Below, piece by piece: positions 4,408-52,452 of a stretch of 64,000 bases of DNA (positions are counted from its first letter, which is position 1; every line of letters begins with the position of its first letter). A program made the translations under genes and the position numbers. The DNA lies in the IMG/VR virus record IMGVR_UViG_3300026473_000477, positions 1 through 64,000 of that record; one strand, written 5' to 3'. The notes beneath the pieces were generated by a model. The model saw only the letters and a list, made by a program, of their open reading frames with translations. It made no database searches and was not told where the DNA came from. The stretch comes from a virus.

Positions 4408-4429
4408 ATTATCGCTATAATATAGTATA
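4408..4429 (+). promoter_or_regulatory. Putative late promoter motif copy 1 (in front of ncRNA candidate)
   Basis: ATTATCGCTATAATATAGTATA, matches motif found before virion genes. Confidence 0.7.
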
Positions 4430-4860
4430 AGCTTTGGGACCGTGAAATAGAGGTTAAGCAAGCCGACCTAGTCCAGCGTTCTGGGAAGCCAGTGGACACT
4501 TGAGAAACGTCAACGAGTAGACTCAAGCGGAAAGCCCTAAGAAGTGACTAGATGAATGCGACTAGTTGCCATGTTTAGAGATAGCTAAACGACCATAAGC
4601 CTTGAGGGAAATTAGTTGAGTACCTTCCAAGGAATAAAGTAAACATAGAGACTTCAGTCCCTATAGGTACTTTATTGTCTAAAATGAAGGGTTACTGAGG
4701 ACAATTCAAAAGAAAGACATAGGTTACTGTTAAGATCGTTCCAATATAAATGTTTCTTAGCATATAGTTTCCTTTTTGATATCCAAGGTTAATTGGATGA
4801 TAGCAGAGATTAGTGAGAAAAGCAATGGAAGAGAAAGAAAACAACAACTTATCTCACTTA
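4428..4860 (+). ncRNA. Structured non-coding RNA candidate 1 (unknown family); 3' end uncertain
   Basis: No ORF, locally higher GC, run of hairpins (GTCCA/TGGAC, CTTGAG/CTCAAG, GTTTAG/CTAAAC, AATAAAGTA/TACTTTATT, ATCCAA/TTGGAT); shares GACCGTGAAATAGAG and CGGAARGC with 36891-37130. Confidence 0.7.
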
Positions 4861-4976: not shown

Positions 4977-5005
4977 TTGACAGTCATCCTGCACCATGTT
5001 ATAAT
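4977..5005 (+). promoter_or_regulatory. sigma70 consensus promoter
   Basis: TTGACA-17-TATAAT with TGn. Confidence 0.85.
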
Positions 5006-5033: not shown

Positions 5034-5147
5034 ATGATAGTAAAAACTCAACACTCAACGTGGCCCGGTTCAGAAAACGACAAAATGATTTATATTTCTC
5101 ATGAGGTGAGAGGTGGTTATTATTATATCACTTGGAAGCTTAAATAG
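5034..5147 (+). CDS. Small hypothetical protein (37 aa), not in ORF track
   Basis: MIVKTQHSTWPGSENDKMIYISHEVRGGYYYITWKLK after perfect promoter and SD AAGGGGG. Confidence 0.55.
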   Translation: MIVKTQHSTWPGSENDKMIYISHEVRGGYYYITWKLK

Positions 5148-5311: not shown

Positions 5312-5341
5312 TTGACAGGTAGCGGTACAGTGTGATATAAT
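5312..5341 (+). promoter_or_regulatory. sigma70-like promoter reading into G-rich tract
   Basis: TTGACA-18-TATAAT with TGn. Confidence 0.65.
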
Positions 5342-5403: not shown

Positions 5404-5437
5404 AATATGCCAGAATATATATTTTCCATTCTACCAA

Positions 5438-5683
5438 TCAAGTGTCATACAACAACCTATAAATCACATCATATTTTCTTCTATGATTCTCATACTCTAG
5501 CTTAACTTCATCAACTATATTATTGGATAATGTAACATCGTTTGACAGACTAAGTAATTCCATGTAAATAGTAAAGTACCTATTTTCTAGGCTAAATTTC
5601 TCCATACCTTCCTTATTCCTACTAAGGACAAAGTATTCAAATATTTGAATTTTAAGCTCATCTATTCTATTATTTGAACTCAA
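5438..5683 (-). CDS. Hypothetical protein
   Basis: ORF overlapping upstream gene. Confidence 0.55.
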   Translation of the reverse strand: MSSNNRIDELKIQIFEYFVLSRNKEGMEKFSLENRYFTIYMELLSLSNDVTLSNNIVDEVKLEYENHRRKYDVIYRLLYDT

Positions 5684-6017
5684 TTGTCACCTTCTTGATC
5701 TTGCCACTAGTCTTATCAATTGACTTCTTAACTGTAAACTTACCATCCCATAAACCATTGACAACAAGCAGACATCCTCTACCTGGATAGTCCTGGTCTA
5801 CTTCTAACTCTAAGTCACCAGTTTCATGTAACTTATCGATCAGATCCTCTCGTCTTTTAAATGGGTTATACTTATCTGGCTCAACAGCGTTTATAAGCTC
5901 ACCATTGGCGTCTAATTGCATTTCACTGGGAGCTGACATGAACACAGGGTCCCCTATGAAAAGAGTTCCTGAGATGATTCTGCCACCTTTATTAGCCTTT
6001 TTTCTTGTCTTTTTCAT
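5670..6017 (-). CDS. Hypothetical protein
   Basis: ORF with SD, coupled to neighbours. Confidence 0.7.
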   Translation of the reverse strand: MKKTRKKANKGGRIISGTLFIGDPVFMSAPSEMQLDANGELINAVEPDKYNPFKRREDLIDKLHETGDLELEVDQDYPGRGCLLVVNGLWDGKFTVKKSIDKTSGKIKKVTIEFK

Positions 6018-6318
6018 TTCCTACCTTCTGTTTTCTAATGGCAAACATTTTGCCCTCAATCCTTCTATCTGTCATTTTAAAGTCAATGACTTCTTCAATT
6101 AATTCCTCATTACATTCACTGGCTAGTTTGTTTAAGATAAAGTCTTTAAACTCACTTGTCATGTGTTTAGGGTTCATTATAAGTTGGCTAGATTCGACCT
6201 CTAGTAGCCACTTATCAAGCCACTGGTTAAGTAACTTTCTTCTAGTTTGGGAGTGGTTAAATTGGTTGTCATCTTTTTGGTCGATAACTTTAAATAGTTC
6301 CAAGATAAACTGCTCCAT
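5992..6318 (-). CDS. Hypothetical protein
   Basis: TAATG coupling with upstream ORF. Confidence 0.7.
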   Translation of the reverse strand: MEQFILELFKVIDQKDDNQFNHSQTRRKLLNQWLDKWLLEVESSQLIMNPKHMTSEFKDFILNKLASECNEELIEEVIDFKMTDRRIEGKMFAIRKQKVGNEKDKKKG

Positions 6319-6682: not shown

Positions 6683-6865
6683 CTAATTTTCATCTTCTTC
6701 AGCTGGAATGTTGTTGAAAGCCTCCAACATGTAAGCTGAGTTCATTGCCTTGGCAAGCTTATTTGCTAGATACTCGATGTCTTCTTGGCTGTCATCCAAC
6801 ACCCATACGGCTAATTCAGTTACTACATAGGCTTGGGGTAAGGCTTTTTTTGTTTTCATAATCAT
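6683..6865 (-). CDS. Hypothetical protein
   Basis: Short ORF, protein-like composition. Confidence 0.45.
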   Translation of the reverse strand: MIMKTKKALPQAYVVTELAVWVLDDSQEDIEYLANKLAKAMNSAYMLEAFNNIPAEEDEN

Positions 6866-6907
6866 TATAGTAAAATATTTTTTTGCATTGTGTAAATTAA
6901 TTCTTGT

Positions 6908-6929
6908 ATTATTGCTATTATATAATATA
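6908..6929 (+). promoter_or_regulatory. Putative late promoter motif copy 2 (leaderless start)
   Basis: ATTATTGCTATTATATAATATA ends on the A of ATG 6929; no SD. Confidence 0.7.
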
Positions 6930-7294
6930 TGAGCAGATTTAAAAAGCTAAATAAAGCATTAAGCTTAAAAAAAGAAGATAAGAATCCTAAAGGCGGACTG
7001 ACGGCTAGTGGTCGAGAGAAGTATAATAAGGCAACTGGTGGAAATTTAAAGCCAGGAGTCAAGGGAGCAGCAGACACTCCAGATAAGATGAGGAGAAAAG
7101 GAAGCTTTTTGACTCGTTTTTTCACCAATCCTAGTGGTCCGATGAAAAACGAATCGGGCGAACCGACACGTTTAGCCCTTTCTGCCGCCGCTTGGGGTGA
7201 GCCTGTTCCTCAAAATAAGGAAGATGCCGCCAAATTAGCCGCTAAGGGTCGAAGATTACTCGAAAGGTATGAAAATACCAAGAAGAAAGATTAA
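6929..7294 (+). CDS. Small basic phage protein (DUF6321-like)
   Basis: KNPKGGLTASGREKYN...GNLKPGVK...RRKGSFLTRF motif recalled from a widespread phage family. Confidence 0.7.
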   Translation: MSRFKKLNKALSLKKEDKNPKGGLTASGREKYNKATGGNLKPGVKGAADTPDKMRRKGSFLTRFFTNPSGPMKNESGEPTRLALSAAAWGEPVPQNKEDAAKLAAKGRRLLERYENTKKKD

Positions 7295-8236: not shown

Positions 8237-8291
8237 CAACTCGAATAATAATCATACAATAGCTGAGTTATTATCGACATTGGAGAAAATC

Positions 8292-8645
8292 ATGAAAAAG
8301 TTCTTAGACTGTGTTCCAGTTCTATCTCTATTTTTATTTCTATTGTTATGCGCTTTTAATCCAGACAGTATTGGATCAGCTGTTGGACTAGTGGCAAGCT
8401 CTCTTCTATTTGCTTATCAGCAATGGTTATTTAAGCAAGAGTCTCCAGATTATTCTACTATTATTTCACAATTAGAATCAAAAGTCAATCAATTAGAATC
8501 TGACCATAAAAAAGACATTGGAAACTTGTCGCTAGAGGTCAATAAAGAGATTACCCAGCTTAGGGATTCTTTAAGCGGAGTTAACTTATCATCAACCAAA
8601 GTTACCACTATCGGTACTAAAGAAAAAAGTAGAATAACTTTTTAA
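8292..8645 (+). CDS. Membrane protein, two TM helices plus coiled coil
   Basis: Hydrophobic N-half; ATG 8292 preferred because of SD GGAG. Confidence 0.7.
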   Translation: MKKFLDCVPVLSLFLFLLLCAFNPDSIGSAVGLVASSLLFAYQQWLFKQESPDYSTIISQLESKVNQLESDHKKDIGNLSLEVNKEITQLRDSLSGVNLSSTKVTTIGTKEKSRITF

Positions 8646-8654
8646 AGGTTAATT

Positions 8655-9026
8655 ATGTCTGACGATATTAAAAATTATCCAGAAATACAAGCAATGGAAA
8701 TTGTCAAGCTTAAAAAACAAATTATTGATTTTGAAATTAAGCTGAAGAATTATGAATCTATATTAAAGGAAAACGATCTTATTGATGAGATAGATTTTTC
8801 CAATGTAAATACAGTTGAAGTAATTTGTGTGTCGGAAATTAATAAGCTAAAAGAAATCTCTGATAAGGGTGGACTTTTACCAGATGATGTTAAGATGCTT
8901 GATCTGTTACATAAAAATCTTTTATTGGCTAGAGGTAAGGAGCCAGAGAAGGCTAGTAAAGGAAAGAAAAAAGATAAGGTTGATGTCGGAGAGCTTCTTA
9001 GTATTGTAACTGGAGATAAGAAGTGA
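8655..9026 (+). CDS. Putative terminase small subunit
   Basis: Helical 123-aa protein upstream of HNH/TerL; assigned by position only. Confidence 0.4.
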
Positions 9027-17457: not shown

Positions 17458-17488
17458 CAAAGCCTCCGTTCAGGGGGCTTTGTTTTTT
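17458..17488 (+). terminator. Intrinsic terminator between capsid gene and convergent RNA ligase gene
   Basis: CAAAGCCTCC-GTTCA-GGGGGCTTTG-TTTTTT. Confidence 0.85.
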
Positions 17489-18536
17489 AGATTAATAAAT
17501 TTCCAGTTGGTCTAATCGCCTTCATTATTAGTCCATCTAGTCCTTTTTGTAGAAAAAAAGAAAATACATAAATATTATAAGGATGATCATTTTCTTTAAG
17601 GTACAATCCTAAGTTCTTTCTATCTTCAGGAAGTAGATCGAATTGTTTTTTATTTAATGCTTCGTATGATATTTTTTTACAATACATTCCAATATTGTAT
17701 TCTAATTCTTCGTAGTTTTTCTCTAATTTTTTAGCTATTTCTTTATAGGGATCTGAAAACTCTTCAGGAATACTAGCCATGAGCTTAGAGCATACCTTTC
17801 CGTCTTTCATAGATTCCCACAAAGTTAATGGAGATAATCCTGATTTAATTCTGTGCATTTTAACATACTCATCACCTTTAAACTTCGCTCTTGTTCCATC
17901 TTCAAACTTTACAACATAGCCTTCTTCGTTAAATGGTAGTTCTTTAAGTTTTTTCTGTAATTGTCCCAAGTCTGAAAAATCATAAGTTTTAGCTTCTGAA
18001 TCAAATGCATGGAGAGAATCCTCTGCTCCATTTTTTGTATCAAATGATGTCAAAAATACAAGTTTTTCTTCTCCTTTATAGTCAACAACAATGCGATTTT
18101 CTGGATAAATAATCTCAACTAAATATGTTTTATTTATTGAAAGATTTCCCATAAAGGGTTCAAGAAGCTCTAGTCCTTTTTTAGCTTGATCTGATTCAAA
18201 ACTTCCACGAGTATTTACTCTCCATTCTCCATCATAGAAATATATAATCCCTAATGAACCATCCATTTTTTCGGCTACAGTAAATCTTTGGGACATTAAT
18301 TCAGTCTGTCTTTCGGGACTAAGCTCTGAAAAATTAAAGAATTTAGGAAAAGCACGAGCTACGATATTGCCTGTGGATAATTCATATACAGAGCCTCTAG
18401 CATTTAGTGTAACTTCGTCCCAAGCTTTCTCCCATTGGCACTTTTCAGTGTAATCAAATAACACAAGCTTTCCACAAGTAGAAATTTTTTTAGAGATAAG
18501 TCCCTGTTCCACATATTTATCAAATCTACTTAACAT
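17487..18536 (-). CDS. rnl1: T4 Rnl1-like RNA ligase
   Basis: NARG, AFPKFFN, motif I EKMDGSLG, TRGSF, EIIYPENRIVVDY, EEGYVV, KFKG. Confidence 0.92.
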   Translation of the reverse strand: MLSRFDKYVEQGLISKKISTCGKLVLFDYTEKCQWEKAWDEVTLNARGSVYELSTGNIVARAFPKFFNFSELSPERQTELMSQRFTVAEKMDGSLGIIYFYDGEWRVNTRGSFESDQAKKGLELLEPFMGNLSINKTYLVEIIYPENRIVVDYKGEEKLVFLTSFDTKNGAEDSLHAFDSEAKTYDFSDLGQLQKKLKELPFNEEGYVVKFEDGTRAKFKGDEYVKMHRIKSGLSPLTLWESMKDGKVCSKLMASIPEEFSDPYKEIAKKLEKNYEELEYNIGMYCKKISYEALNKKQFDLLPEDRKNLGLYLKENDHPYNIYVFSFFLQKGLDGLIMKAIRPTGNLLI

Positions 18537-19506
18537 TTAGCTCTCTTTTGTAAAACTTAAGCAATATCTCATCTAAGTATATACGTTCCAATCTTTCTGG
18601 TAAAGTACTTTCTTTACACAATCTTTCAAGTTCCTCAAGTCCAGCTTCAATTTCTGGCTCTAACTCTTTGTAATCAATCTCTCCTGCTTTAATCTTTTTT
18701 AAACGAATAAGATTTTCACCAATATGCGGTAAAGTAATAGTTCCAGTTGAAAGTAGTTCTTGACCTTGATATAAGCATCTCATGGCATGGGACAAAGCTT
18801 TCCAATCTATACCGTTATTATGTTTAGCTTCTCTTGCTCTTTGTCCATATTTTTTATACTCATCATTTAGACACTTAGTAATAACTTGGAAAGGAGTGTC
18901 TTGATCAAACCTTTTACCAAGAACATTAATTGCTGGCTTAGAAGAAGTAGAAGTAGGATGTAAAGTAGTAAAGTTTACATACTTAAAGTCTCTAAAAGCT
19001 ACGACAAGTTCGTTCCACGAATGCTTTAGTTTCGCTCCTTTAAAATCATGAGAATGTTCTAATTCTTTGAGAATCTTAACTACATTATTAAGCTCTCCCA
19101 TTCTAGAACCTTTAATTCCGTATTTGTTGGCTTGCTGTCTAGCATATCCTATCATTGCGTTAATTTTCTTACTGACGAGTGTTTCTCTGATTGATAAAAT
19201 ATCATCCCATTCTTTTGACTTTTCAATAATAAATTGATCTGGAGTAAACAATAACTCTAACGCTGCTGTATCTCCGTTTTCTATCATATTTAAGAATTTA
19301 CGAAGACTATATAGCTCAGTGTCTACATCGTCTTTTGTATTCTTAGAATAATCATTTCCTGTAGAATATCTAATAGTATCTGAATAATTACCTAAAATAA
19401 TATCATCATTACTAGGAATAAAGACCCCTTTGTAGTCCATATCAGAGCTAGGAGTGTTCGTTCCAAATAAATGAGATCCTGCAATGGATTTAATTAAAAT
19501 TTTCAT
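18526..19506 (-). CDS. Pol-beta superfamily nucleotidyltransferase (RlaP / T4 NrdC.11-like)
   Basis: GSHLFGTNTPSSDMDYKG, GYARQQA, DWKALSHAMR. Confidence 0.88.
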   Translation of the reverse strand: MKILIKSIAGSHLFGTNTPSSDMDYKGVFIPSNDDIILGNYSDTIRYSTGNDYSKNTKDDVDTELYSLRKFLNMIENGDTAALELLFTPDQFIIEKSKEWDDILSIRETLVSKKINAMIGYARQQANKYGIKGSRMGELNNVVKILKELEHSHDFKGAKLKHSWNELVVAFRDFKYVNFTTLHPTSTSSKPAINVLGKRFDQDTPFQVITKCLNDEYKKYGQRAREAKHNNGIDWKALSHAMRCLYQGQELLSTGTITLPHIGENLIRLKKIKAGEIDYKELEPEIEAGLEELERLCKESTLPERLERIYLDEILLKFYKRELNVK

Positions 19507-19509
19507 ATT

Positions 19510-19671
19510 CTATAATCCAATTTCAGCACAATCGAAGTTATATATAAATACAGTTTTTTCTTGTTTAGATAACATTGTTTGCACTGGGCTTCTATAAAGA
19601 AGAATATTATGAAATCCTCCAGTGAAGTAAGGTTTTATATCTAAAAATGCAAAACTTCCAATAAAACTCAT
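19510..19671 (-). CDS. Small hypothetical protein (53 aa), not in ORF track
   Basis: MSFIGSFAFLDIKPYFTGG... fills the gap between PNK and nucleotidyltransferase. Confidence 0.45.
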   Translation of the reverse strand: MSFIGSFAFLDIKPYFTGGFHNILLYRSPVQTMLSKQEKTVFIYNFDCAEIGL

Positions 19672-19672
19672 A

Positions 19673-20608
19673 TTAAAAATTTCCAGGTCTGACTTGAAAA
19701 CAGTTTAATCCTAACTCTCTCCATTTTATCACAACTTGATCTCGATCGTCAAGTACATACTTAACATTATAAAAAGGTTCAATTTCGTATCTATATAACA
19801 TAGCTTTAGTAATATCGTCAGACTTATAGTTAATCTTAGGGCGCATCTTTAAAGCTGTATATGGGATATTATGCTTGGCTAACCATTCTTCAGTTTCCTT
19901 TCTATAATCTTCTGGTCTTCCAGAACACAAAACTACTTCAGTCCCGGCTTCAAATTCCATTTCTAAAATCCCTCGAACATCTTCATATACTGAATCATTT
20001 ATACATTCCCTAAAGAACTTACCCCAATCTTTCTTACCTTCACCTTTTACATGATTAAGTCTATGATCGAGATTAGCAAGCGTACCATCTATGTCTACCA
20101 TTATTGCAGACTTTGATGAAAATTTATCAGAGATTCTAATTACTTCGCCCTCTTCTTCGGTAACTTCCTCATATCTAGAGAAGAAAGTATTTAATGCTGA
20201 GGTAGCAGAATTAGATTTGTGTGTATCTATAGTATCTTTAAAGTGTTTAAGAGAATACTCATCCCCTGGAACTGGTCTACCGAGTATCCCATTAATTGTA
20301 GGATGACCTTCTCTATCCATACAACGATCATAACAAATCTGTCTAGGAACTACAAACTCGACAAAGTTTACATCATATCCATTTTTAATCGCTTCAAGTC
20401 TGTATTTATCTCGTTGTTGTTTATCAAAGTTCATTCTATCGACTACGATATCTGAACCAGCATTCATGCTGGATTTAAATAAATCTAAATGACCTTGTTT
20501 ACCTTGATCATCTTGAGATATTCTAATATATCCAGAATTTTCAAGTGATTTAGCGTATGTAGACTTTCCTGATCCTGGTGGTCCAATCAATATAGTTAGT
20601 TTATTCAT
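19673..20608 (-). CDS. pseT: Polynucleotide 5'-kinase / 3'-phosphatase (T4 PseT-like)
   Basis: P-loop GPPGSGKST; HAD DIDGTL, SGR, DDR. Confidence 0.92.
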   Translation of the reverse strand: MNKLTILIGPPGSGKSTYAKSLENSGYIRISQDDQGKQGHLDLFKSSMNAGSDIVVDRMNFDKQQRDKYRLEAIKNGYDVNFVEFVVPRQICYDRCMDREGHPTINGILGRPVPGDEYSLKHFKDTIDTHKSNSATSALNTFFSRYEEVTEEEGEVIRISDKFSSKSAIMVDIDGTLANLDHRLNHVKGEGKKDWGKFFRECINDSVYEDVRGILEMEFEAGTEVVLCSGRPEDYRKETEEWLAKHNIPYTALKMRPKINYKSDDITKAMLYRYEIEPFYNVKYVLDDRDQVVIKWRELGLNCFQVRPGNF

Positions 20609-20613
20609 GTTTC

Positions 20614-20889
20614 CTACTTTTTTAATTTCTCAAATCTTTCTTTATATTCCTTAAACTCATTAGCATCACGCTCTTTCTCAAATTGGAACTTCTCCAGTCT
20701 AGCTATATATTTCCTACAATGATGAATTAAACTCTGCATGAAATCTTTAAAGTATTCATGAGTATAGTTATTATACTTTTCGATAATTTTAACATACCTT
20801 TTAAGATTTTTCAAGTCACTAGGTTGTTTTCCAGACTTTCGATCCTTATTGTACCTAACTTCATTTTCATCTTTAATGTCATATCCCAT
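20614..20889 (-). CDS. Hypothetical protein
   Basis: TAATG-coupled ORF in the same operon. Confidence 0.65.
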   Translation of the reverse strand: MGYDIKDENEVRYNKDRKSGKQPSDLKNLKRYVKIIEKYNNYTHEYFKDFMQSLIHHCRKYIARLEKFQFEKERDANEFKEYKERFEKLKK

Positions 20890-21434
20890 TAACTACCTAC
20901 TTTCCAAGTTTCTCGGTTATATTTATAATTACCTAATATTTTATTTGAATTAAAACAAAGTCCTTTATCCTTAAACTGAATCCTATATTGGGGATAAATA
21001 TATAAATTACCGTCTTTTCCCATAAGCGCATGAGTCTGCTTCCAATGCTCGGAATTTCGACTTAAATCGTTATTGCCAATATAATCGATTGTAAATAAAT
21101 ATTCAGCTTCAATAAGCTTTTTGCTGGAAGTCTTAACAACGCAACTCATATATCTTAATGTATCAAAACAAATAACCTGAATTTCTGATCCAATGTTATC
21201 CCACATTAAAACTTCTTCCAGTGGCTTAATTTCAGCCTTTTCATTAAAAGCTATAGCATTGACTGGTAAACCTGTAAATAACGCACCATCATCAGTTAAA
21301 ACGCTAATTTGAATGGCTTGATTCTGCAATGCTCGACAAGAAATAAGATGAGCATAAGTATAGCCTTTTTTCTTGTCCCAATAAAGAAACTCATTCCTTA
21401 CCCATACTTGAATTGGAGGAAGATTATCGTTCAC
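20889..21434 (-). CDS. Conserved phage protein of unknown function
   Basis: NLPPIQVWVRNEFLY...GALFTGLP...YLFTID pattern; GTGA coupling. Confidence 0.7.
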   Translation of the reverse strand: MNDNLPPIQVWVRNEFLYWDKKKGYTYAHLISCRALQNQAIQISVLTDDGALFTGLPVNAIAFNEKAEIKPLEEVLMWDNIGSEIQVICFDTLRYMSCVVKTSSKKLIEAEYLFTIDYIGNNDLSRNSEHWKQTHALMGKDGNLYIYPQYRIQFKDKGLCFNSNKILGNYKYNRETWKVGS

Positions 21435-21556
21435 TTTTTTCCTTTTTCTAGCTTTTTTTGCACATATTTTATTAAATTATAGCCTAAAATAGCTGGAATT
21501 GCCCCAGGAATTATTAATATTGCTACTATTTGGACTATATCATTCTTTTTTTTCAT
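21431..21556 (-). CDS. Small single-TM protein (41 aa), not in ORF track
   Basis: MKKKNDIVQIVAILIIPGAIPAILGYNLIKYVQKKLEKGKK. Confidence 0.5.
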   Translation of the reverse strand: MKKKNDIVQIVAILIIPGAIPAILGYNLIKYVQKKLEKGKK

Positions 21557-21564
21557 AAGTTATT

Positions 21565-21646
21565 AAAAAAACTAGGCATAACCTGAAGAGGGATTGGCTA
21601 TGCCTAGCAAGGATTAAGCTAAGTATAGATTCCTATAAGTAGCTGT
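21565..21646 (-). ncRNA. ~80-nt leader/small RNA: hairpin, linker, intrinsic terminator
   Basis: After perfect promoter; AGCTA/TAGCT plus TATAG/CTATA hairpin, linker TAATCCTTG, CTAGGCATAGCC/GGTTATGCCTAG stem then T7. Confidence 0.7.
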
Positions 21647-21652
21647 AATTGC

Positions 21653-21681
21653 ATTATATATTACATATTGTAATTTGTCAA
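21653..21681 (-). promoter_or_regulatory. sigma70 consensus promoter for leader RNA / RNA-repair operon
   Basis: TTGACA-17-TATAAT. Confidence 0.88.
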
Positions 21682-25200: not shown

Positions 25201-26727
25201 ATTGAATGTGCATCATGGCAAGGAAGACTTAGTAAGGGCGATGTAATTCGTGCGCATACCGACGGAGCTGCGGCTACGGATAATGATGCCGTTAAATTCA
25301 CAATCTCTAAAGTCGGCAAGCCTAACGTAGAAGCTGTTGATGTCACTCCATTTATTGATATTCCTCAAGAGAAAAGACAGACTGCGGTTTATACAGCTTT
25401 AACGTACACTACAGCTACATTCCCAGTTAAGATTAGCTCACTTGCCACTTCTACAACTGGGTCTTCAATCTTTACAGTAGATAACTCTGGTGCTTCATCT
25501 AGGATAGTTGCTCTTAAGGATTGCACTTTAGATATTCATTATAACTCACTAATCTCTGCGTCTGGTGCGAGCTTAATCGTAAGAAAGAATGGTATTGCGG
25601 TTAATATTTTGGCTGGAACATCCACGCATAACACTGGACAAGGCGATACTGTTTCTGGTGAGTTGTTTTTAGCGACAGGTGAATATATTGAAATTGGATC
25701 AAGCGCTGGAACTGTTTCAAGTGCTGGTGCTAACGGATCATTAGTATTATCCGCCAAAGCTAACTCATCTCAAATTCTATCTGAGGTTGAGACATTCAGT
25801 ACTGATACTGCATCATTAACTTACGCCTCAAGTGCTTTATATACATTAGCTACTTTACCTAACTCTCCAATTGGCACATATATCACATTTACGTATGCAG
25901 CTAATACGAATACAAGAACTCAGACAACTACTAGACCTACTCAGACTGATGCTGACATGAATGCAAATGGTTTCTTGATTACAGCAAGAGCTTATAATGC
26001 TGCTTCTGTGGCGGCTACTCCAAGTACGTTTGTTGTGAACGTAGGCAAAGGGTACAGTGGTCAGCTTTTAGAGATATTTAAAAATGCTGGGCAACTTCTA
26101 AAGGGTAGCTTTGATTATTACGTTCTTGGAACAAATGGGTATGGAGCATTAGTTAAAGACTATAACCCTACGACTGGTCTATTATTTATTGATGCTGGTG
26201 CGGTTGATGCTACAGTAACAAACGTTCATTTATTTACGTTTGAAGATGTTTCTCAAGCATCTACAGGTTACGTTACATTCACAGCATCTAAAAACCCTGC
26301 ACTTACAGGAGTATTTGTTCCAGAGGTAATCTCTGCATCTTACTTCTTATCAGCTAACCAATCAGTAACAGCTAACACCCAAATTAACTTTGATAGCAAA
26401 GAGTTTGATACTCACAATGCTGTAACAACAGGGGTTGGAGTTTGGAAGTTTACTGCACCAGAGAGTGGATTTTATTCACTTCAAGGAGTTACTGACCAGG
26501 TTACTGCTGGAATTTTTCTTGTTGCTTATAAAAATGGAGTGGCTCACAAGTCGGTAAGTTATGATTCAACTGGAAACTTGGCTGGTATAGTTAGTGCAGT
26601 AATTAAGTTAAACAAGGGTGAGTTTATTGATGTTAGACCAGCCGTAACTGCTACATTTAATGGTGCTGGACTTCAAGCAGGTAACGCTGGTGTCACTCAT
26701 ATTTCAATCACAAGGGTAGGTAAATAA
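22243..26727 (+). CDS. Long tail fibre / adhesin with C1q-like domains
   Basis: HINDAIDAHDASAIS repeats, DPTDPQDAATKAYVD fibre motif, Gly linker, C-terminal FDSKEFDT...FTAPESGFY...IKLNKGEFI. Confidence 0.8.
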   Translation: MISKKRFKRGIVIKPDTEVLEGINGELKVDSADSKIKTTLGGTPHEVITNDQMQTLTNKSIDADNNTISNLEVDNLKAGVLDTDLNMVSPMDDTIPSAKATKAYVDAAAATADANLQAHINDAIDAHDASAISNIPFGTISSTDVQSAINELDGDIQGHINDMIDAHDASAISVIPTGNLLSDNVQDALVELQLENDTQVVGPAMATDNAIARFDGTTGKLIQDSNVTVSDLGDVVTPASVTADTITGTSSVTSPIVNANTKLNTPEVSSAGSLTLSPATHTSNSNKQIKDVADPTDPQDAATKAYVDGASANVEILDEGVSITGTVESINFVGAGVTATAVGNDVTVNIPGGGGGGGTGVGDLDTIFTDDFETSVLADYIQVGLAIVTANALHDNFSARLIHQTATPTPGLTQYFERTIPLDDAFQKKVVEFAVKLKSTASSGNITVSVKDQLGATLYSGVLESNSRQIANLTTTTGSATVGGFTNANIMTVEVNQLVTGTGIPTGTYITAVNTGALTVTLSANATATGTTTLSFSSESLEQKFTFTTLENTTSLVYRINALVQNGLPESYFDDVVIKLADAYENNVALIEEEDTAIVAAGNNGEVITVDVTNIPFNLVSSKGSDILSGVGTYTALESGLYNFTGSVFFTAAATRAIRIYVNGVVLRTVSDSPNAAQFKFDVSNINLMAGDIVSFRANATGGTLSNSTTLHWINISKQGSLKQIVTNGESKISIPTSELRFEGASTRGTTNTQVVRFDNVTKVRGGDLTYTNTATNGTEITFLKSGLVNIQTQYITVAGQNVYIAKNALTQAATNGETALAINVNGSTGNFTEAIYSGFIKAGDVVRVLAGVNPTADIRNSLNITFQAQEIQVSVSNTLPQFSDSDTSIRLDTANGYGSVGTKIRRFLNLRENFDKDVTYIPSAINGDSFLILEDGIYNISYTDYQNAVRVGITLNSNNISTNVSTLALNPNNEVLALVATGVIDIECASWQGRLSKGDVIRAHTDGAAATDNDAVKFTISKVGKPNVEAVDVTPFIDIPQEKRQTAVYTALTYTTATFPVKISSLATSTTGSSIFTVDNSGASSRIVALKDCTLDIHYNSLISASGASLIVRKNGIAVNILAGTSTHNTGQGDTVSGELFLATGEYIEIGSSAGTVSSAGANGSLVLSAKANSSQILSEVETFSTDTASLTYASSALYTLATLPNSPIGTYITFTYAANTNTRTQTTTRPTQTDADMNANGFLITARAYNAASVAATPSTFVVNVGKGYSGQLLEIFKNAGQLLKGSFDYYVLGTNGYGALVKDYNPTTGLLFIDAGAVDATVTNVHLFTFEDVSQASTGYVTFTASKNPALTGVFVPEVISASYFLSANQSVTANTQINFDSKEFDTHNAVTTGVGVWKFTAPESGFYSLQGVTDQVTAGIFLVAYKNGVAHKSVSYDSTGNLAGIVSAVIKLNKGEFIDVRPAVTATFNGAGLQAGNAGVTHISITRVGK

Positions 26728-36894: not shown

Positions 36895-37130
36895 CTTATT
36901 GGCGTAGTTTTATCTATGTAGAAAGGAAGTCTACCTAGTAAAACCAATAACTTACTATGTTTGAGTGTTCAGTTAGAGGGTTTGCCAATTTAAGGCTGAA
37001 TGTCTTCATTTCCTATGGAAGCCTTCCGCTGGGTACTTAATCCTTGCTCGACACCCAGAAGTGCGTTTGTTTATCGGGACACCTGTATCGCTTTCGCTCT
37101 ATTTCACGGTCTTCGATAGGAAACTGCTTT
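36891..37130 (-). ncRNA. Structured non-coding RNA candidate 2, paralogue of 4428-4860
   Basis: Own promoter; TTTCCTAT/ATAGGAAA and GAAG/CTTC closing stem, GACCGTGAAATAGAG core, GC-GAAA-GC, CTGGGT/ACCCAG stem, long 3' hairpin; G-U pairs favour the - strand. Confidence 0.75.
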
Positions 37131-37135
37131 CTAAT

Positions 37136-37164
37136 AGTTTATCATAGGTGATTTACTTTGGCAA
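37136..37164 (-). promoter_or_regulatory. sigma70-type promoter for ncRNA 2
   Basis: TTGCCA-17-TAAACT with TGn. Confidence 0.65.
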
Positions 37165-51630: not shown

Positions 51631-52452
51631 TTATTTGCTAATAGCTTTATTATACGCTTTAACTGCCAATGCTACTGTATTTGACTTATCGTATTTAGCC
51701 AACTTTAAGAACAATTCTTCCAAGCTTAAAACATCATATTTGTTATACTTTTCCATTGATTTCCAAGCTTTCATATTACCTTTAAGACATTCATCCCAAA
51801 GTTTAAAACCAGAGAAGTCAGAATGTTCTTGCTTCTTATATTTAGTGCAAAGCTTTTTAGTCATGTACTCTAACTTATTGGAAGTAAATCCAAAATGTTT
51901 CTTAGCAATTCTCAAGGTGTCAATGTTTTTGTAATGTGTTGGAGCATCTAATCCATGCTCAATAAGTCTGGCATTGATTTTTTTCATGTCAAATGATATG
52001 CCGTTTTGCGTAATAACAATATCAGCTTTATCCAATAGTTTTTTAATCTTTACCAATAGTGGCTTATCATTATGTAATGACTTTCCTTTCTTATTCCTTT
52101 GGTCGGCATAGATTACTTCAGATTCACTACTTCCAAGCCATTTAGCTGAAAATGATAGAATAAACCAATCTTTAATTAGCATATTAAGTGGGATGTTTTG
52201 GTCAAACAATCCCCATACAAAACCAACCAAAGGGGATGTTTCGATATCTAAAATCAATACGTTAGGAGTATATTCTTCAGAATCAGAACAATAAGCTTGA
52301 ATACAATGTTTGATTGAATCAGGAGTTCTATGTAAGTTAAACTTTTGCCTAAACATTTTGCTAATCTCTGTTCGAGAATAACCTTGGCTATTCAACTTCC
52401 TTACATAATTTATCTGTTTTTTATCCCAAGTAATTTTCATTAAAATCTCCAA
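51631..52452 (-). CDS. DEDD 3'-5' exonuclease (RNase H-like) with N-terminal HTH
   Basis: LDIET, QNGISFD, IDTL, SNKLEY, YNKYDV. Confidence 0.88.
   Translation of the reverse strand: MEILMKITWDKKQINYVRKLNSQGYSRTEISKMFRQKFNLHRTPDSIKHCIQAYCSDSEEYTPNVLILDIETSPLVGFVWGLFDQNIPLNMLIKDWFILSFSAKWLGSSESEVIYADQRNKKGKSLHNDKPLLVKIKKLLDKADIVITQNGISFDMKKINARLIEHGLDAPTHYKNIDTLRIAKKHFGFTSNKLEYMTKKLCTKYKKQEHSDFSGFKLWDECLKGNMKAWKSMEKYNKYDVLSLEELFLKLAKYDKSNTVALAVKAYNKAISK

Follow-up and report, generated by a model that had tools for sequence, protein, structure and literature searches.

The window analysed here is a 64,000-nucleotide (nt) stretch, positions 1 to 64,000 of the IMG/VR virus record IMGVR_UViG_3300026473_000477; the full record is 79,614 bp long and comes from an uncultured 80-kb river phage. 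We find that positions 4431-4541 (+) of the window encode the junction domain of a structured RNA, here called RNA A, whose fold is shared with a second locus of the same genome (RNA B) and with RNAs of many unrelated uncultured phages. The stems of this domain are kept by compensatory changes, and the family is undescribed and uncatalogued. In the reading that we favour tentatively, at somewhat less than an even chance, this is a stand-alone phage RNA whose conserved junction acts on one partner that is conserved across hosts.

The 15-mer GACCGTGAAATAGAG, which the initial annotation of the window had reported at two loci on opposite strands, occurs in the window exactly twice, at 4438-4452 (+) and 37097-37111 (-), and has no third occurrence in the full 79,614-bp genome. 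Two matches were reached in none of 100 dinucleotide shuffles of the window. Both loci continue, as had also been claimed, to the block CGGAA(A/G)GC, located 75 nt 3' of the 15-mer in A and 68 nt 3' of it in B. Every stem that the annotation had named as differing in sequence yet still pairing was found, in the same multi-way junction P1-P5. P1 pairs GGG with CCC in A and GAAG with CUUC in B; it is lengthened in B by UUUCCUAU/AUAGGAAA, and in A by CUU/AAG across a U-U mismatch. P2 is CCG/CGG in both copies. P4 is GUCCA/UGGAC in A and GGUGU/GCACU, with two G-U pairs, in B, while P5 is CUUGAG/CUCAAG in A and CUGGGU/ACCCAG in B. The comparison supports the conclusion that loci A and B are paralogues of one RNA family. 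Their parts are located as follows.

4431-4541, plus strand: junction domain of RNA A, from the sequence, the minimum-energy fold, a covariance-model match and family covariation
4432-4438 with 4535-4541, plus strand: P1 of RNA A
4439 opposite 4531-4534, plus strand: internal loop of RNA A, with A4439 opposite AAAG
4440-4442 with 4528-4530, plus strand: P2 of RNA A
4443-4451, plus strand: J2/3 of RNA A
4452-4455 with 4465-4468, plus strand: P3 of RNA A
4471-4475 with 4493-4497, plus strand: P4 of RNA A, with an inner stem, 4481-4484 with 4489-4492
4499-4504 with 4522-4527, plus strand: P5 of RNA A, with its loop at 4505-4521
37004-37126, minus strand: junction domain of RNA B, the paralogue, in a slot common to clade relatives, from a covariance-model match and the sequence
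about 37035-37052, minus strand: P5 loop of RNA B

Relatives of the 786- and 135-amino-acid proteins encoded beside locus B were found, at 43-50% identity, in other ~80-kb IMG/VR contigs. At 9 of 11 loci located by protein synteny alone the identical 15-mer stands at the same place, antisense, between the 135-amino-acid gene and a gene for a protein of 740-786 amino acids. DNA pattern scans of IMG/VR and JGI metagenomes extended the contig set, and a relaxed pattern, GACCGTGAAA...AGCGGAARGC, brought in a large number of contigs from unrelated phages, their G+C contents ranging from 30% to ~49%. The domain is thus present in ~35 IMG/VR and metagenome contigs, as ~13 sequence types, in many unrelated uncultured phages. 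Its size is ~115 bases (range 86-140 nt), the minimal form being the 86-nt domain of contig locus L093. Most phages carry one copy, including each of the complete or near-complete genomes G001-G005 and G009; two copies were seen only in the window phage.

A covariance model, a check proposed in the initial annotation, was trained on eight close relatives only (alignment A5), with neither window copy included. It recovered both window copies, B with 59.6 bits (E-value 8e-14) and A, at full length, with 36.3 bits (E-value 1e-7, match 4425-4553), as well as at least ten further types; ten of these (L018, L059, L071, L085-L089, L093/L098 and L094) score 25-50 bits. L092 and L097 were accepted as members by eye, the model with default filters having reported neither, and the pattern hit L099, at 15 bits, is a doubtful member. 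The high-GC metagenome pattern hits L054, L058, L060, L061, L068 and L069 and the viral hits L084, L091 and L100, mostly coding sequence, were rejected as likely chance matches; the high-GC hits inside coding sequence fell short with the covariance model. More diverged family members surely exist.

The shared unit consists, in order, of P1, an unpaired A, P2, J2/3 (UGAAAUAG), P3 (a variable hairpin), J3/4 (approximately GAYAGG), P4 (variable and sometimes branched), one nucleotide and P5, and it closes with CGG-AARG-CC, which pairs with P2 and then with P1. The hallmark 3' strand of the family, AG-CGG-AARG-CC, closes P2 and P1. In an ungapped MAFFT alignment of the eight relatives, pairing holds in 99.6% of cells, with 10 pairs altered on both sides; slid controls give 27-41%. 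When alignments were fitted to the covariance model, 98.2% of cells paired among 13 distinct sequences, with changes on both sides at 19 of 27 pairs, and 97.5% among 18 distinct sequences, with such changes at 20 of 27 pairs and 59 extra pair types (slid controls, 29-41% for the 18 sequences and 29-44% over the two sets). Covariation is seen in each of P1, P3, P4 and P5; the invariant pairs are those of P2 (CCG/CGG) and the two at the start of P5 (C-G and U-A). G-U pairs are frequent, being found in 7 of 18 sequences at the foot of P1 and in 5 of 18 at the sixth P5 pair, and since these would be A-C mismatches on the opposite strand, they fix the strand of the RNA. The free energies of the core domains folded singly are unremarkable (z of -0.2 and -0.6), so the case for structure rests on sequence comparison. 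The initial annotation had pointed out that homologues keeping the 15-mer and losing the stems would indicate a DNA-binding site; the homologues preserve the stems by compensatory changes, which supports a structured RNA rather than a DNA site.

In the clade of 80-kb phages to which the window phage belongs, GGU in the P4 loop is complementary to ACC in the P5 loop, and two sequences have GGC with GCC in their place, a change from U-A to C-G. A contact between the P4 and P5 loops is tentatively considered probable, judging from this one compensatory pair within the 80-kb clade; in the other types 3-4 bp could form between the two loops, in no common register. The complementarity may act within or between molecules; in either case, it would be structure and not a guide. 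A pairing of the P3 loop with the P5 loop (GCGA with UCGC) was considered and rejected, there being no change on both sides, as was a mini-open reading frame (ORF), GUG-AAA-UAG/UAA, which breaks in L089.

Downstream of the junction, no part is common to all types: no 8-mer is shared beyond chance in the 230 nt that follow. Tails are shared within sub-lineages only, such as a hairpin with UGGUUUU after it in L092, L093, L098 and RNA B of the window, and blocks such as GACAUUC. The tails of the two window copies are as follows.

4542-4860, plus strand: predicted extra hairpins 3' of RNA A, from single-sequence folding only
36940-37003, minus strand: 3' tail of RNA B, consisting of a UUCAG/CUGAA hairpin, an AACU/AGUU hairpin and then UUGGUUUU, from the sequence, with the putative end of the RNA here

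The initial annotation had counted at least six more hairpins downstream of the RNA A junction. The segment 4536-4860 does fold well, with an energy of -71.5 kcal/mol (z of -1.97) that beats 99 of 100 shuffles. A homologue search for the 4542-4860 part found none, so that no covariation test applies and the downstream hairpins are predictions only. On the minus strand, 4665-4644 resembles a terminator. Two 15-nt repeats tie this tail to other genes: 4748-4762 is identical to 51893-51907 (direct) and 4803-4817 recurs inverted at 25545-25559, the partners being an RNase H-like gene and a gene for a 1494-amino-acid protein; ~0.25 such repeats are expected from base composition. For RNA B, the arrangement of a hairpin followed by UGGUUUU recurs in L092, L093 and L098, with compensatory stem changes judged by eye, and no canonical terminator was called on its 3' side.

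The initial annotation had held the RNA to be neither a transfer RNA (tRNA), a transfer-messenger RNA (tmRNA) nor a known ribozyme, and had proposed an Rfam scan; the former view was upheld. Rfam 15 (4227 models) at gathering score gave no match in the whole window or in ten other member loci. At E<=10, the surroundings of A, B, L093 and L088 gave only eukaryotic or otherwise irrelevant noise of at most 18 bits, none of it on the junction domain. ARAGORN called no tRNA or tmRNA gene in the window. A blastn search of GenBank phages with both loci and three other members returned nothing, or noise of 24-29 nt, and a pattern scan of 185,579 prokaryote species genomes returned 10 hits, none of which scored with the covariance model; absence from these two collections holds as far as exact-pattern and BLAST searches reach. 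The motif was described nowhere in full-text literature searches.

Each copy in the window is preceded by a promoter-like sequence.

4411-4423, plus strand: promoter-like phage motif ATCGCTATAATAT, a repeated motif directly 5' of RNA A
37136-37164, minus strand: sigma70-type promoter of RNA B, with TTGCCA, a 17-nt spacer, TAAACT and a TG ahead of the -10 box

With up to two mismatches allowed, ATCGCTATWATAT has 20 matches in the window versus 5.8 expected. Nine of these are on the plus strand, where copies of the form AT(C/T)GCTAT(T/A)ATAT start at 4411, 6911, 8218, 11249, 15733, 21720, 27458, 30526 and 37244; several lie ~15-60 nt ahead of plus-strand genes (8280, 11290, 21759, 27473 and 37275). 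We infer that the ATCGCTATAATAT motif is a promoter, probably a middle or late one. Of the initial claim that a late promoter drives RNA A, the repeated motif thus stands, and the promoter role is putative. The copy at 6911 falls where ORFs 6865-7128 (-) and 6929-7294 (+) overlap, and it favours the plus-strand ORF, 6929-7294, as the real gene.

The slot-B relatives, that is, those in the virion module like RNA B, have TTGCCA/TTGACA-N17-TATATT/TATACT at the place equivalent to the RNA B promoter. In most types sigma70-like promoters end 16-45 nt ahead of GACCG, and several score 11-12 of 12. The transcript is likely to start at or just before the foot of P1. Slot-B relatives (L024:40-84, and the same place in L017-L027) have a 5-7-bp hairpin and a U-rich run between promoter and P1; the stem sequence of this hairpin varies among relatives, and it is terminator-like yet located at the 5' end of the RNA.

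The 80-kb clade has two alternative slots for the RNA, and the window phage occupies both, with different promoter types. Slot A lies in the early control region, next to homologues of the genes at 5992-6318, 8280-8645 and 8655-9026 in the window; its members are L092, L093 (=L095=L096) and L098. Two features of copy A recall the slot-A type: its P3 (GGUUAAG...ACC) and a P5 loop whose 3' side is rich in purines. The RNA in slot B runs antisense to the neighbouring virion genes and converges with them, both in the window and in all slot-B relatives. It is missing from slot B in two clade members, one of which has a DUF559 endonuclease gene there: in L008:2909-3790 an antisense gene for a DUF559 (Vsr-like) endonuclease takes the place of the RNA, followed by ~330 nt of GC-richer non-coding sequence that has no RNA-model match and may be a different RNA. 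Downstream of the RNA A domain, ~440 nt hold no credible gene, and separate perfect promoters follow. The two promoters, TTGACA-N17/18-TATAAT with a TG extension at 4977-5005 and 5312-5341 (+), are each followed by a tiny ORF that has a strong ribosome-binding site, 5034-5147 (37 amino acids) and 5407-5505 (32 amino acids), and they face convergent minus-strand genes.

A further claim of the initial annotation, that the RNA is a scaffold with a variable guide loop, did not hold as a general rule for the family. Semi-conservation of the P5 loop is evident over the ~13 types: YCGA recurs towards the 5' side, and the 3' side carries RAUUAAGG, UAAGU or GAAGAG. The slot-B loop is almost invariant in the 80-kb clade although the proteins of these phages are only 40-50% identical. 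Targets were searched for with the P3, P4 and P5 loops and the whole domains of seven RNAs from six complete or near-complete genomes. A complementary site longer than 12 nt was found for one of the seven, copy B; the RNAs of G001, G002, G003, G005 and G009 have none in their own genomes. The annotation had placed the target of the copy A loop outside the window and proposed a search of the rest of the phage genome. The complement is indeed absent from the window, and from the whole 79.6-kb genome as well, where the best match, 9 nt, is at chance level.

The loop of copy B, AGCAAGGAUUAAG, is perfectly complementary over 13 nt to a site in a minus-strand transcript, a length that 1 of 200 shuffled copy B loops also reached.

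21606-21618, minus strand: candidate target of the RNA B P5 loop, the single-stranded linker CUUAAUCCUUGCU in the leader of the Rnl1/RlaP/Pnkp operon

This linker is flanked by a hairpin on its 5' side and then by a 12-bp terminator that has a U7 run, and, as read from the sequence, beyond one mismatch three further pairs of the RNA B loop would enter the terminator stem. The operon is not present in relatives G001-G003, whose P5 loop differs. For a whole domain, ~0.3 matches of 13 nt are expected in each genome, which makes a single one in seven RNAs unremarkable, and 7 of the 13 matched nucleotides of copy B (GAUUAAG) are family-conserved loop sequence. We consider pairing of the RNA B loop with the operon leader at 21606-21618 improbable. 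The RNA-repair operon itself, 17487-21681 (-), encodes an Rnl1-type ligase, an RlaP nucleotidyltransferase and Pnkp, with a perfect promoter, a leader hairpin and a terminator ahead of it.

In the reading that we favour, that of a stand-alone RNA with a partner conserved across hosts, 4431-4541 (+) would be the 5' junction domain of RNA A, at or near the 5' end of its own transcript, with copy A made from the phage's own promoter-like motif and copy B from a sigma70-type promoter. Given the two promoter types, the phage would have the RNA both early and late. The working part would be the conserved junction, that is, P2, J2/3, J3/4 (GAYAGG), the A/AARG internal loop and the first two P5 pairs; the variable stems would hold it in shape, probably with the help of the P4-P5 loop contact. 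In the window phage the RNA would act in trans, as a folded particle, on a partner that could be a small ligand or else a conserved protein machine, for example RNA polymerase, and would have no programmable loop. Trans action is preferred because neither window copy has a co-oriented gene to control, because slot-B copies converge with their neighbours, and because a pair of promoters with different timing would be pointless unless the product mattered. The dedicated promoters, the antisense placement in slot B, the ~440 nt free of credible genes after copy A, the loss from that slot in two clade members and the use of two slots support a stand-alone unit, and the distribution is sporadic, moron-like. 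That the junction matters, rather than tail or loop, is supported by the 5' domain being the only part common to the types and by the lack of a loop target for six of the seven RNAs.

Several observations weigh against this reading. Transcription of the RNA is inferred from promoters only, the public sequencing runs listed for this phage including no RNA run, and most copies have no canonical terminator downstream, which leaves the 3' ends of the RNAs undefined. Alignments A6 and A8 were fitted to the covariance model and so lean towards it, and the search patterns themselves account for part of the invariance of GACCGUGAAA and AGCGGAARGC across lineages. When the neighbouring ORFs were compared all-against-all by BLAST for a common partner protein, only lineage-level synteny emerged. 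The 13-nt complement of the copy B loop counts on the same side, as does the placement of the domain at the head of a co-oriented early-gene block in ~10 of 12 lineages.

This last point agrees no less well with a cis-acting 5' leader than with a trans-acting RNA. In such a leader the nascent domain would act on its own transcript, either as a riboswitch-like sensor gating read-through from early promoters or as a put-like element that makes RNA polymerase resistant to terminators. We consider it unlikely, though the most serious of the alternatives. In most types the domain lies at the likely transcript start, and in ~10 of 12 lineages co-oriented genes follow 70-460 nt downstream, often in a divergent promoter region; a conserved 5' domain followed by a lineage-specific part is the usual layout of aptamer and expression platform. 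The downstream genes have unrelated early functions (RecT, Erf, exonuclease, HNH), which suits a gene-agnostic device such as antitermination; as they lack a common metabolic theme, they argue against a metabolite riboswitch. Between the domain and the next gene, L092, L093 and L098 have a hairpin, whose changes are compensatory as judged by eye, and a U-run. The placement just downstream of an operon promoter is, however, seen neither in the window copies nor in the slot-B relatives: B and those relatives converge on virion genes, and A is followed by separate promoters. By eye, no conserved alternative pairing of P1 with a downstream hairpin was found in L092, L093, L098 or the slot-B relatives; a switch-like candidate in L093 was rejected, as it is not kept in L098. 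The junction also does not resemble the two-hairpin put fold. In unrelated lineages the RNA lies within ~1.2 kb of non-homologous recombination or nuclease genes, namely RecT (L059, L097), Erf (L088, L094), exonuclease (L085, L097) and HNH (L018, L085, L088), with RusA nearby too, which could reflect position in the early region only.

The remaining explanations appear less probable still. In a guide mechanism, the variable P5 loop would base-pair with a target RNA, like the a'/b' loops in P1/P7's antisense RNA C4. It has in its favour the copy B match, equalled by few shuffled loops and located in a single-stranded linker directly ahead of a terminator, and the lack of the Rnl1/RlaP/Pnkp operon in G001-G003, whose loop differs. 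We nevertheless think it improbable, since the copy A loop matches at chance level, five other genomes offer no site, a 13-mer is not rare at the scale of a domain and a genome and falls largely on family-conserved nucleotides here, and the slot-B loop barely varies among diverged phages; a target in the host genome is conceivable. About as improbable, or slightly more so, is a new class of self-cleaving ribozyme, with the junction strands as active site and a loop-loop contact stabilising them as in the hammerhead. The size of 86-140 nt, the multi-stem junction, the apparently invariant single-stranded segments and the probable loop-loop tertiary contact would agree with it, and so would the sporadic distribution, the variable orientation to neighbours and the gain and loss of copies between close relatives, a genomic behaviour that resembles that of twister, hammerhead and pistol ribozymes in phages. 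Against it, none of the models of known ribozymes matches even at E<=10, the sequence suggests no site of cleavage, and a dedicated promoter with a start apparently at the foot of P1 is atypical for processing ribozymes. Strongly disfavoured, finally, and very improbable is that the element is not an RNA at all and represents a protein-binding site, an origin, a recombination site or a chance resemblance. The 15-mer is conserved more than the stems, and locus A lies in an early control region, where origins and operators are common. However, the variable stems are all kept by compensatory change, with pairing falling to 29-41% upon sliding, the many G-U pairs would be meaningless for duplex DNA, and the orientation is always downstream of a promoter; chance is excluded by the dinucleotide shuffles and the covariance-model matches.

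The family can be set beside several known systems. Like the orphan phage and aquatic RNAs manA, wcaG, GOLLD and ROOL, it is phage-carried, conserved with covariation, built on complex junctions with probable loop-loop contacts, found in freshwater viruses that are uncultured, and in many cases a transcription unit of its own (PMC12286853). Unlike them, it has no Rfam 15 match and carries its own junction signature, GACCGUGAAAUAG ... AGCGGAARGCC, and its shared domain, at ~90-140 nt, is much smaller than GOLLD or ROOL. The put elements are a pair of hairpins. In phage HK022, the nascent putRNA alone suffices for antitermination (PMC9378689), and, like putL and putR of HK022, the RNA stands just behind promoters, in two copies per genome in the window phage, and would need no particular downstream gene, most family members heading early operons. 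It differs from them in its multi-way junction of ~90 nt or more and in the lack of co-oriented downstream genes at both window copies.

The CI RNA of phage P4 acts on leader termination, and the copy B loop match beside a terminator in a leader recalls it. C4 RNA is the precedent for a conserved scaffold with target-specific loops (PMC5320573), and, as in C4 of P1/P7 and the P4 CI RNA, a folded scaffold has loops that could pair with phage leader RNA. In contrast to C4, whose Rfam model gives no match, the junction is closed by P1 and P2 instead of comprising three stem-loops, and no loop targets are found for copy A and in five other genomes. Riboswitch aptamers offer another parallel, with apparently invariant nucleotides in junction strands (an invariance partly imposed by the search), peripheral stems of variable length, and a place at the transcript 5' end with lineage-specific sequence downstream. 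It departs from riboswitches in that it matches none of the known classes, that its downstream genes are heterogeneous or lacking, and that no switching alternative structure was seen. Two candidates were rejected: a phi29-type packaging RNA, because the carrier genomes are unrelated and 39-85 kb long, as against ~20 kb for a phi29-like phage, and there is no Rfam match to packaging RNA, and the known self-cleaving ribozymes (hammerhead, twister, twister-sister, pistol, hatchet, HDV-like, hairpin and glmS), none of which gives an Rfam match at E<=10.

Complex-folded RNAs with fixed junction nucleotides across unrelated genomes are mostly riboswitches, ribozymes or parts of conserved ribonucleoproteins. 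It is possible, if on balance rather unlikely, that the RNA represents a new ligand-binding or catalytic class, present as a free-standing abundant transcript both early and late; it could, for instance, be an aptamer for sensing or mopping up some nucleotide-type signal in the infected cell, or a new self-cleaving ribozyme. The compact domain (86-140 nt) would be easy to synthesise. With strong comparative support in many uncultured phages of differing G+C, and with no entry in any catalogue searched, it is a well-defined candidate RNA. The match of the copy B loop to the leader of the RNA-repair operon gives a concrete handle on a possible regulatory role, and the presence of two diverged copies behind two kinds of promoter in one phage suggests that the RNA product itself matters during infection.

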